64,000 bases of DNA from the NCBI RefSeq assembly GCF_988243305.1, contig NZ_OZ547136.1. The stretch is one strand, 5' to 3'. Shown here in pieces: positions 26,301 to 29,300 of the stretch; position 1 is the first letter of the stretch, and each line of letters starts with the position of its first letter. The position numbers are program-made.

Positions 26301-29300
26301 CGCTGGGCGTGGCTTCGGCTTTACCGCTGTGGAGCCGCGCAGTATTTGCGGCGGAACGCCCAACGTTACCGATCCCTGATTTGCTCACGACCGATGCCCG
26401 TAATCGCATTCAGTTAACTATTGGCGCAGGCCAGTCCACCTTTGGCGGGAAAACCGCAACTACCTGGGGCTATAACGGCAATCTGCTGGGGCCGGCGGTG
26501 AAATTACAGCGCGGCAAAGCGGTAACGGTTGATATCTATAACCAACTGACGGAAGAGACGACGTTGCACTGGCACGGGCTGGAAGTACCGGGTGAAGTCG
26601 ACGGCGGCCCGCAGGGAATTATTCCGCCAGGTGGCAAGCGCTCGGTGACGTTGAACGTTGATCAACCTGCCGCTACCTGCTGGTTCCATCCACATCAACA
26701 TGGCAAGACCGGACGTCAGGTGGCGATGGGGCTGGCTGGTTTGGTGGTGATTGAAGATGACGAGATCCTGAAATTAATGCTGCCAAAACAGTGGGGTATT
26801 GATGATGTCCCGGTGATTGTTCAGGATAAAAAATTTAACGCTGACGGGCAGATTGATTATCAACTGGATGTGATGACCGCCGCCGTGGGCTGGTTTGGCG
26901 ATACGCTGCTGACCAACGGTGCAATCTACCCGCAACACGCTGCCCCGCGTGGTTGGCTGCGCCTGCGTTTACTCAATGGCTGTAACGCCCGCTCGCTCAA
27001 TTTCGCCACCAGCGACAATCGCCCGCTGTATGTGATTGCCAGCGACGGTGGTCTGCTACCTGAACCGGTGAAGGTGAACGAGCTTCCCGTGCTGATGGGC
27101 GAGCGTTTCGAAGTGCTGGTGGAGGTTAACGACAACAAACCGTTTGACCTGGTGACGCTGCCAGTCAGCCAGATGGGGATGGCGATCGCGCCGTTTGATA
27201 AGCCGCATCCGGTAATGCGGATTCAGCCGATTGCTATTAGTGCCTCCGGTGCTTTGCCAGACACATTAAGTAGCCTGCCAGCATTACCTTCGCTGGAAGG
27301 GCTGACGGTACGTAAGCTGCAACTCTCTATGGACCCGATGCTCGATATGATGGGGATGCAGATGCTGATGGAGAAATATGGCGATCAGGCGATGGCCGGG
27401 ATGGATCACAGCCAGATGATGGGGCATATGGGGCATGGCAATATGAATCATATGAACCACGGCGGGAAGTTCGATTTCCACCATGCCAATAAAATCAACG
27501 GTCAGGCGTTTGATATGAACAAGCCGATGTTTGCGGCGGCGAAAGGGCAATACGAACGTTGGGTTATCTCTGGCGTGGGCGACATGATGCTGCATCCGTT
27601 CCATATCCACGGTACGCAGTTCCGTATCTTGTCAGAAAATGGCAAACCGCCAGCGACGCATCGCGCGGGCTGGAAAGATACCGTTAAGGTAGAAGGCAAT
27701 GTTAGTGAAGTGCTGGTGAAGTTTAATCACGATGCACCGAAAGAACATGCTTATATGGCGCACTGCCATTTGCTGGAGCATGAAGATACGGGGATGATGT
27801 TAGGGTTTACGGTATAAAAAGACCGTATTCGGAAATATGCCCGGATCTCTCCGGGCATTATGGTTACTTCACATCATCCGGCAGCGCATAAGCCACAATA
27901 TAGTCGCCCATCTTCGTACCAAATGAACCGTGACCGCCTGCGGAGATCACCACATACTGCTTGCCATTCACTTCATAGGTCATTGGCGTAGCCTGACCAC
28001 CCGCCGGTAAACGGCCCTGCCACAGTTTTTCACCGTTGCTCATGTTGTAAGCGCGCAGGTAGTTATCTGCCGTAGCGGCGATAAACAGTACGTTACCCGC
28101 TGTGGAGATTGGCCCGCCCAGCATCGGCATACCCATATTGAACGGCACCGGTACAGGCATCGGGAACGGCATACTGTCCTGCGGCGTACCAATACGTTTC
28201 TTCCACACCACTTCATTGGTTTTCAGATCCAGCGCCGAGATATAGCCCCATGCTGGCTGTTTACATGGCAGACCAAACGGTGAGAGGAACGGGTTGAGCG
28301 TGACACCATACGGTACACCGTACTGTGGCTGAATGCCGGATTCCGTACCCGTGCCTTTGGCATCTTTCGGCTGCTCCATCGGGTTACCCGGACCGCGTGG
28401 GATCAGTTTCGAAACAAACGGCAGTGCCATTGGGTTGGCAATTGCCACTTCACGATTCGGATCAACGGAAATCCCGCCCCATTCGAACATCCCCAGGTTA
28501 CCCGGGAAGACCAGCGTACCCTGTTCAGATGGCGGGGTGAAAATGCCTTCATAGCGCATCTGGTGGAACATCACGCGGCACACCAGCTGGTCAAACATGG
28601 TGGCTCCCCACATATCCGCACCGCTCAAATCTTTCGTCGGACGGAAGCTCAGTTCAGAAAACGGTTGAGTTGGGGTTACGTAATCGCCTTTGGCAGCCCC
28701 TTGGGGAACCGGTTTTTCCGGTGCCGGAACCACCAGTTCGCCATTACGACGATCGAGCACAAAAATGTTGCCGGTTTTCGCCGGAGCGTAAATAACTGGC
28801 ACTTTCTGACCATTAACGGTGATGTCCGCCAGCGTCGGCTGTGCCGGAAGATCCATATCCCACAGGTCGTGGTGAACGGTCTGGTAGCTCCACGCCAGTT
28901 TCCCGGTTGTGGCATTCAGCGCCAGAATCGAGCTGGCATAACGTTCCTGTTCCGGTGTGCGGTTACCGCCCCAGATATCCGGCGTGGTCACGCCCATCGG
29001 CAGATAGACCAGATCCAGCTTCGCGTCATAGGCCGCTGGTGCCCACGAGTTTGGTGAGTTAAAGGTAAAGGTGTGTTCGTCAGACGGGATTGCGTTCGGA
29101 TCTTTCGCGCCCGGATCAAAAGCCCACAGCAGCTCCCCGGTGTTGACATCAAAACCACGGATCACGCCAGACGTTTCGCGGGTTGAGAAGTTATCGGTGA
29201 CTGAACCGGCCATCACGATGGTTTTATCGGTGATAATCGGCGGCGAAGTTGGCTCATACAGACCCGGTTTGGTGTCCGGCATATTGCTTTGCAGATTGAG

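Follow-up and report, generated by a model that had tools for sequence, protein, structure and literature searches.

The cueO locus of the window, by which we mean the whole stretch of 64,000 nucleotides analysed here (contig NZ_OZ547136.1 of RefSeq assembly GCF_988243305.1), raises the question of what the methionine- and histidine-rich segment of the encoded cuprous oxidase is, what it may do in the enzyme, and whether its repetitive coding DNA changes in length between strains. The segment found in the window, its structure and its role have already been described for CueO of Escherichia coli K-12 (UniProt P36649), and differences in the Met-rich domain between organisms have also been published. 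The present analysis adds a quantification of the length variation of the tail of this segment over 80 species, an account of the repeat turnover that accompanies it, and the observation that no length change was seen in Escherichia.

Identity and genomic context of cueO

The gene and the elements around it are located in the window as follows.

26267..27817 (+): cueO CDS, periplasmic multicopper cuprous oxidase, 516 aa plus stop, start ATG at 26267 (MQRRDFLK)
26267..26350 (+): predicted Tat signal peptide, residues 1–28, with the RRDFLK motif, identical to full-length PDB CueO 5b7e
26191..26221 (+): predicted CueR (MerR-type) promoter of cueO, TTGACC, 19-bp spacer, TATGCT, its function deduced from sequence
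27837..27858 (without strand): GC-rich hairpin ATGCCCGGA-tctc-TCCGGGCAT in the gap between two convergent genes, cueO and gcd, recognised by sequence inspection

A preliminary description of this DNA had assigned the gene to cueO, and the assignment was borne out by the NCBIfam CueO equivalog model NF008205, which gave 981.5 bits (cutoff 525) and covered model positions 1–528 of 529, and by full-length PDB CueO chains (5b7e and 7f0v), which aligned over residues 1–516 and were identical to the window protein at 513 of these. The three substitutions relative to PDB CueO (S191N, S271N and A464T) all lie outside the Met-rich segment. Pfam recognised Cu-oxidase_3, Cu-oxidase and Cu-oxidase_2, i.e. 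three cupredoxin domains, and E. coli DNA that is 100% identical bears a cueO annotation at this locus. Both ligand sets of the catalytic coppers are complete in the window, with H443, C500, H505 and M510 for the T1 copper and H101, H103, H141, H143, H446, H448, H499 and H501 for the trinuclear centre (TNC). The twin-arginine motif RRDFLK points to a Tat-dependent export signal; the Pfam TAT_signal model matched residues 1–20 with 21.1 bits, slightly below its cutoff of 22.7, and the first residue of the mature PDB CueO chains (1kv7, 1n68 and 3od3) is residue 29.

Gene order at the locus (speD-speE-yacC, cueO, gcd-hpt-can) is that of standard E. coli. Upstream of cueO, the promoter elements TTGACC (26191–26196) and TATGCT (26216–26221) are separated by a 19-bp spacer, and a dyad CCTTCCC-N5-GGGAAGG at 26195–26213 forms a perfect 7-nt inverted repeat. 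The published CueR signal is ACCTTCCC-(5)-TGGAAGGT with a 19-bp spacer (PMC1526738), and the elements upstream of cueO agree with both the signal and the spacer rule. A generic sigma-70 scan, which takes spacers of 16–18 nt only, found no promoter for cueO; this is the expected outcome since MerR-type promoters have 19-nt spacers, beyond the range of the scan, and the null result was rejected as proof that a promoter is absent. Downstream, the hairpin at 27837..27858 is a probable bidirectional terminator of cueO and gcd, which received no call in the terminator scan because it has no T run.

Compared with K-12 CueO (YacK; PDB 1KV7, 1N68, 3OD3 and 3NT0), all T1, TNC, Cu5, Cu6 and Cu7 ligands match the window, and the yacC-cueO-gcd neighbourhood and the CueR-type promoter architecture are common to both. 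The two cueO genes differ by ~3% nucleotide divergence, and the cueO-gcd interval of K-12 contains an extra REP/BIME element of ~155 nt, which is absent from the window. With ligands, domains and a CueR-type promoter present, the enzyme and the transcriptional control element of cueO are intact at the sequence level, and the 99.4% identity to a characterised enzyme suggests that the window CueO has cuprous oxidase activity and a role in copper tolerance. This cueO can be annotated with confidence as functional.

Composition and structure of the Met-rich segment

The Met/His-rich segment was found as an exact 46-residue peptide in the translation, starting at position 27329 as in the preliminary description; the end given there, 27470, ran 4 nt too far, into the codons of K401 and F402, the correct end being 27466. 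The segment, its parts and the residues facing it are as follows.

27329..27466 (+): Met/His-rich insert, residues 355–400 of CueO
27329..27397 (+): conserved N-terminal part, residues 355–377, with the Met-rich helix (357–369), its ligands present, delimited in an alignment of 81 sequences
27398..27466 (+): flexible Met-His-Gly tail, residues 378–400, variable in length between genera
27419..27436 (+): the 9-nt unit ATGGGGCAT twice in perfect tandem (encoding Met-Gly-His x2), TRF score 36, repeat family D3
27441..27458 (+): imperfect 9-nt tandem repeat ATATGAATC / ATATGAACC (..MNH MNH..), repeat family D4, 89% identity (8/9)
27581..27589 (+): codons for the two Cu5 ligands that domain 3 places opposite the Met-rich helix (D439 and M441), present in the window, with their role taken from PMC11494321

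Of the 46 residues, 14 are Met (30%) and 5 are His (11%), whereas Met makes up 3.2% and His 3.8% of the remaining 470 residues of CueO; the segment is thus enriched in Met far beyond chance and in His only modestly, as judged by binomial tails of 1e-10 and 0.03, respectively. The earlier statement that CueO carries a Met-rich segment at this place was therefore correct. As is typical of CueO, the segment is a Met-rich insert in domain 3 over the T1 site, and residues 355–400 correspond to the published Met-rich domain as delimited by the deletion variants 358–407 and 361–396 (PMC11494321). It had also been described as intact, and no damage was found: the peptide is identical at 46 of 46 residues to K-12 and PDB CueO, and every copper ligand is present, namely all four of the Cu5 site (M355, D360, D439 and M441, as defined in PMC11494321), M358 and M362 for Cu6, and M364, M368 and M376 for Cu7. 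The engineered CueO variants that lack the segment (PDB 2YXV/2YXW; variants 358–407 and 361–396) differ in this respect from the window protein, which has it whole.

The division of the segment into two parts follows published structures, in which the Met-rich helix (357–369) is ordered and the loop 370–398 is disordered in most crystals (PMC6155172). A similar division was seen in molecular dynamics of the Hafnia alvei enzyme, in which a stable helix is set apart from a flexible remainder (PMC12041951). Both 9-nt repeats lie in the DNA of the tail; at the first of them, K-12 reads ATGGGCCAT ATGGGGCAC where the window allele has the perfect ATGGGGCAT x2.

Role of the segment in the enzyme

The binding of extra copper and the gating of substrate access, both attributed to this region in the preliminary description, fit the published work on CueO. 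Extra copper (Cu5, Cu6 and Cu7) is bound by the Met-rich domain, which also restricts access to the T1 site sterically (PMC11494321, PMC6155172): lying over the T1 copper, the domain physically keeps phenolic substrates away from it (PMC11494321). Substrate Cu(I) is oxidised at one site only, Cu5, located where the Met-rich helix meets domain 3 (PMC11494321), and phenol oxidation is activated when Cu5 is occupied by Cu(II) (PMC11494321, PMC12041951). A negligible role was assigned to Cu6 and Cu7 in the helix (PMC11494321), the literature being divided on the weight of these two sites. The domain is dispensable for weakly chelated Cu(I) and raises activity on strongly chelated Cu(I), a gain that is probably due to transient binding by its many methionines (PMC11494321).

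On the reading that best fits these data, residues 355–377 would form a conserved amphipathic helix over the type-1 copper that provides M355 and D360 and, with D439 and M441, would make up the Cu5 site at which Cu(I) is bound and oxidised, and residues 378–400 would form a flexible Met/His/Gly tail. Helix and tail together may keep bulky phenolic substrates out sterically, and their many thioether and imidazole groups may catch Cu(I) transiently, chiefly when it is tightly chelated, and pass it to Cu5. The coding DNA of the tail consists of short in-frame tandem repeats whose gain or loss alters its length between genera of Enterobacteriaceae, the array in Escherichia having shrunk to two weak 9-nt repeats with a length that is constant in every genome inspected. 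It is highly likely that the segment is the canonical Met-rich insert of CueO, intact and composed of helix and tail, acting as a steric barrier and in Cu(I) capture, and with a length driven by repeats; the evidence on mechanism consists of published experiments on the K-12 enzyme, and the window allele differs at S191N, S271N and A464T.

A stronger reading would make the segment an essential regulatory gate, whose presence or absence decides cuprous oxidase activity and copper tolerance. Consistent with this, deletion of the region lowered Cu(I) oxidation in solution by ~90% and raised phenol oxidase activity ~33-fold in older work, as far as that work is recounted in PMC11494321, and an "R-loop" has been proposed as a modulator of the Met-rich helix (PMC6155172); the activation of phenol oxidation by Cu(II) at Cu5 would also suit a gate. 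However, both deletion variants retained wild-type activity with unchelated Cu(I) and almost wild-type copper resistance in vivo, and CueO activity was abolished only by double mutation of Cu5 ligands (PMC11494321). Under anaerobic stress, too, it was catalytic activity that mattered and not the Met-rich domain, deletion again leaving resistance near wild-type (PMC12510620), and in a natural CueO, that of Trabulsiella odontotermitis, 28 residues of the segment are missing and M355 and D360 are kept. An essential gate is thus improbable. What stands of the earlier claim that an intact segment should leave "cuprous oxidase regulation" functional is a part as facilitator of Cu(I) recruitment and as steric element; the segment is not a regulator, regulation being the task of CueR at the promoter. 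Since deletion mutants resist copper in vivo nearly as well as the wild type does, any physiological benefit of the tail remains putative.

Length of the segment within E. coli

From the low complexity of the coding DNA, the preliminary description had proposed a candidate site for indels between strains, which would make the segment a contingency or slippage-like locus of E. coli. The window allele lends some colour to this proposal with its perfect 9-nt x2 repeat and a second repeat at 8/9, and so does the comparison between genera, where segment length does change by gain or loss of tandem repeats, as in Kosakonia arachidis, whose array exceeds those of K. sacchari and K. oryziphila by a single 24-nt unit. 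Two copies of one 9-nt unit (TRF 36) and one 8/9 pair do not, however, amount to a slippage array, and the perfect repeat is absent from most E. coli alleles: in 10 of 12 others, ATGGGCCAT ATGGGGCAC or a variant of it stands in place of the perfect ATGGGGCAT x2, so that typical E. coli offers even less substrate for slippage.

Segment length was surveyed in 5426 complete E. coli genomes by megablast with two queries enclosing the segment, of 541 nt and 181 nt; the region was present in 5424 of these genomes. In 59 rank-spread matches per search (118 in total, the weakest being set aside), the span in the record equalled the span in the query, and no net length change was found in ~160 listed E. 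coli records (these 118 and ~40 further ones) or in 19 PLSDB records. Applied to the 118 spread matches, the rule of three limits any length allele in E. coli to a frequency of at most ~2.5%. Closer bounds were obtained from the identity bands of the 181-nt query, in which 86 of 5431 records fell at ≥99%, 5338 at 95–99%, six at 90–95% and one at 80–90%. BLAST identity counts gap columns, a 9-nt gap giving exactly 95.0% and 95.3%, and an indel of at least 12 nt always falls below 95%, so that at most 7 of the 5431 records (0.13%) can carry one. Queries with one ATGGGGCAT unit deleted or a third copy added retrieved only alleles of wild-type length, at 95.0% and 95.3%, and neither slippage product was found in the 5431 records. 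This survey is a sample combined with identity-band bounds that leaves out the six records at 90–95% identity, a band into which they fall with either query, and low-frequency indels of 3–6 nt could escape it; searches with divergent queries (E. whittamii, GTDB E. coli representative E69 and L37) did not return these six records among their top matches.

In the weakest match, E. coli L37, cueO bears the annotation of a pseudogene with a frameshift; ~400 nt of it show scattered substitutions and small indels, and this scrambled sequence is unique to that one assembly. It was rejected as a class of indel allele, being scrambled, frameshifted and private, which points to assembly error or private decay.

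An alignment of cueO alleles had been suggested as the check on the indel proposal, and it was carried out on 12 E. coli records fetched across the identity range. The cueO CDS was 1551 nt in all 12 (11 protein accessions), and the segment alleles differed by substitutions only, with 13 of the 16 variable nucleotide sites at third codon positions. Eight of the records encode the 46-residue peptide of the window; the changes in the segment of the remaining ones are A377V, G399S, or M388I plus G399S, and one further record carries K401N, immediately outside the segment. Constancy of length extends to the genus, with 46 residues in each of the five Escherichia species representatives, and between Escherichia species nucleotide identity is higher in the segment (94–98%) than over the whole gene (90–94%), probably in part because 14 of the 46 codons are the single Met codon. 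The hypothesis of strain-level indels in E. coli is thus largely refuted, and a slippage-like locus is a very unlikely description of the segment in this species: variation of the segment within E. coli is by substitution, none of the surveyed records showed a length polymorphism, and the segment provides no useful length marker for E. coli typing.

That the true feature is instead a 108-aa His/Met-rich ORF on the antisense strand (27610..27284, –), itself a gene, has next to no probability, since this ORF, although uninterrupted, is fully contained in cueO, whose product has solved structures and matches at the equivalog level, and lies on a strand without annotation in 100%-identical DNA, the variable sites are at third positions of the sense frame, and the His/Met richness is a mirror image that follows from ATG (Met) and CAT (His) being reverse complements, for which reason the ORF was rejected as an artefact.

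Length of the segment across Enterobacteriaceae

The canonical Met-rich insert, constant in length in Escherichia, was then followed over the family in a scan of species-representative genomes, which gave 80 CueO loci from Enterobacteriaceae and, with the window, 81 sequences. Protein length among these loci ranges from 489 to 546 aa. The segment accounts for 18–75 residues, as opposed to 470–472 for the rest of CueO, and the 81 sequences show 27 distinct lengths, with the differences confined to the tail. In the MAFFT alignment, indel columns were found at window residues 366–401, along with one single-column indel at 421 and one extra C-terminal residue; when Trabulsiella is excluded, the indel columns of the segment are residues 378–401. 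Residues 355–377 are free of indels in 80 of the 81 sequences and have a mean identity of 85%, compared with 65% for the tail. The Cu5 ligands M355, D360, D439 and M441 are invariant (81/81), and the ligands of Cu6 and Cu7 are kept in 59–80 of the 81. The number of Met residues follows segment length with r = 0.89.

Segment lengths are 46 residues in Escherichia (five species representatives), 47–51 in Enterobacter, 49–69 in Citrobacter, 54–63 in Klebsiella, 59–70 in Raoultella, 66 in Salmonella arizonae and 56–75 in Kosakonia, which places Escherichia at the short end of the orthologue range. The CueO proteins of Citrobacter, Salmonella, Klebsiella/Raoultella and Kosakonia resemble that of the window in the conserved helix, the invariant Cu5 ligands and a remainder of constant length, and differ in their tails, which reach segment lengths of up to 75 residues, contain up to 20 Met and are encoded by tandem repeats of 15–45 nt for units like NMNHG or MGQMNHGD. 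The protein of Trabulsiella odontotermitis (L081, 489 aa) comes close to being a natural version of the engineered deletion.

The basis of these differences was apparent in the DNA. In TRF analysis of the 81 cueO genes, all arrays scoring at least 50 lay inside the segment and those elsewhere scored at most 48; arrays in the segment had periods of 15, 24, 27, 30 and 45 nt, with the top score of 185 in Kosakonia quasisacchari. Length differences map to these in-frame DNA repeats, making the segment a tandem repeat that varies by lineage. The Met-rich tail is therefore essentially the sole internal part of CueO that varies in length across the 80 species, and it does so through tandem-repeat turnover. 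The idea that low-complexity DNA leads to indels here holds on the scale of species to genera and where the arrays are long, and such indels went unseen among E. coli strains.

A parallel for a longer domain is available in Hafnia alvei CueO (PDB 8R4F; Met-rich deletion variant 8R4H), which shares with the window protein the fold, the Cu5 site and the two-part Met-rich domain at 67% protein identity, and whose domain has 22 additional residues and 6 additional Met (PMC12041951). This enzyme combines its longer Met-rich domain with a higher cuprous oxidase efficiency on chelated Cu(I) (PMC12041951).

Implications for CueO in the family

These observations allow the tentative suggestion, which we consider possible but on balance doubtful, that tail length is evolutionarily tuned, being set by in-frame gain and loss of repeats and frozen in a short state in Escherichia; the link between length and activity comes from the single comparison of Hafnia with E. 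coli (PMC12041951), and the data presented here are a pattern. Under such tuning, the expanded state would be that of Kosakonia, Raoultella/Klebsiella, Citrobacter and Salmonella (54–75 residues). For the short state of Escherichia (46 residues), two causes may be envisaged, decay of the repeats or fit to the niche.

The survey of tails is a small complement to the recent biochemistry that relates tail length to Cu(I) recruitment. If the tail were indeed tuned, its length would be a predictor of the capacity of a species to detoxify chelated Cu(I).

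The window cueO allele

The cueO allele of the window proved uncommon in megablast searches of complete Escherichia coli genomes, with at least 99% identity over a 541-nt query around the Met-rich segment in just 27 of 5431 records; the exact allele over a shorter, 181-nt query was common to 33 records. The closest matches were to the O169:H41 strain Res13-Lact-PER13-34 and, for the 181-nt region, to strain 042; K-12 cueO was about 97% identical to the window gene. Comparison with three other Escherichia species representatives gave 79–81% identity in the first ~250 nt, against 87–97% in the remainder of the gene, a drop that may reflect recombination or mosaicism at the 5' end of cueO within the genus. 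Two further features were considered in the window:

27284-27610, minus strand: ORF of 108 aa, His/Met-rich, antisense to cueO
12064-12177, minus strand: match to sRNA family tp2 (RF02030; Rfam, 103 bits)

The ORF was rejected as a gene and is a mirror artefact of the Met/His-rich sense frame: the reverse complement of ATG (Met) is CAT (His), which gives the antisense frame its composition. The tp2 match, the sole one at the Rfam gathering threshold over the 64-kb window, is probably located in the pdhR-aceE area, a placement made by coordinate offset.

Disrupted and shortened CueO in two assemblies

The CueO of Trabulsiella odontotermitis (gene 1001-2467 of its locus) is, as assembled, a 489 aa protein in which 28 residues of the Met-rich segment are missing. 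Since the substrate copper (Cu5) ligands M355 and D360 are retained despite this loss, the protein, as assembled, would be a naturally occurring equivalent of the enzymes engineered to lack the Met-rich segment.

The annotation of E. coli L37 (NZ_CP034589.1) gives cueO as a pseudogene, frameshifted and interrupted by an internal stop. Approximately 400 nt (locus ~1480-1890), including the Met-rich region, are full of substitutions and 1–3-nt indels, while the sequence on either side is near-perfect, and a search with the scrambled sequence found it in no other record. The disruption is probably a local assembly error, or possibly private decay.

cueO on a phage-plasmid

An E. coli-type cueO is also carried by a 98.8-kb IncY, P1-like phage-plasmid of Escherichia fergusonii (NZ_CP056970.1, locus at 29313-48863) from pig-farm faeces in the UK, at 96.3% nt identity over the full length and with no indels; E. 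fergusonii is absent from the 80 chromosomal CueO loci retained here. The relevant features, in locus coordinates, are:

7636-8844: ISVsa5 (IS4/IS10-like) transposase gene
9001-10551: cueO
12045-13253: ISVsa5 transposase gene, same strand as the first

From this arrangement, cueO and the two ISVsa5 transposase genes flanking it look like a composite transposon that would have captured the chromosomal gene. Comparable records of 96–100 kb (NZ_CP116983.1, NZ_CP056963.1, NZ_CP063334.1 and NZ_CP057359.1) come from E. coli as well as E. fergusonii, and a tie between phage-plasmid cueO and copper use in pig farming is a matter of speculation. Three other cueO-bearing PLSDB "plasmid" entries (NZ_CP134663.1, NZ_CP141089.1 and NZ_OL790696.1), of 4.8–4.9 Mb each, are evidently wrongly labelled chromosomes.

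Length polymorphism in the cueO-gcd spacer

The cueO-gcd intergenic spacer measures 46 nt in the window (27818-27863) against 201 nt in K-12 MG1655 (3509-3709 of its locus), the ~155 nt more in K-12 consisting of REP-like palindromes, a BIME (GCCTGATGCGCTACGCTTATCAGGCC ... GGATAAGGCGTTCACGCCGCATCCGGCA). The true length polymorphism near cueO thus lies in an intergenic REP element and not in the Met-rich region, which the preliminary description had put forward as a candidate site for indel variation.
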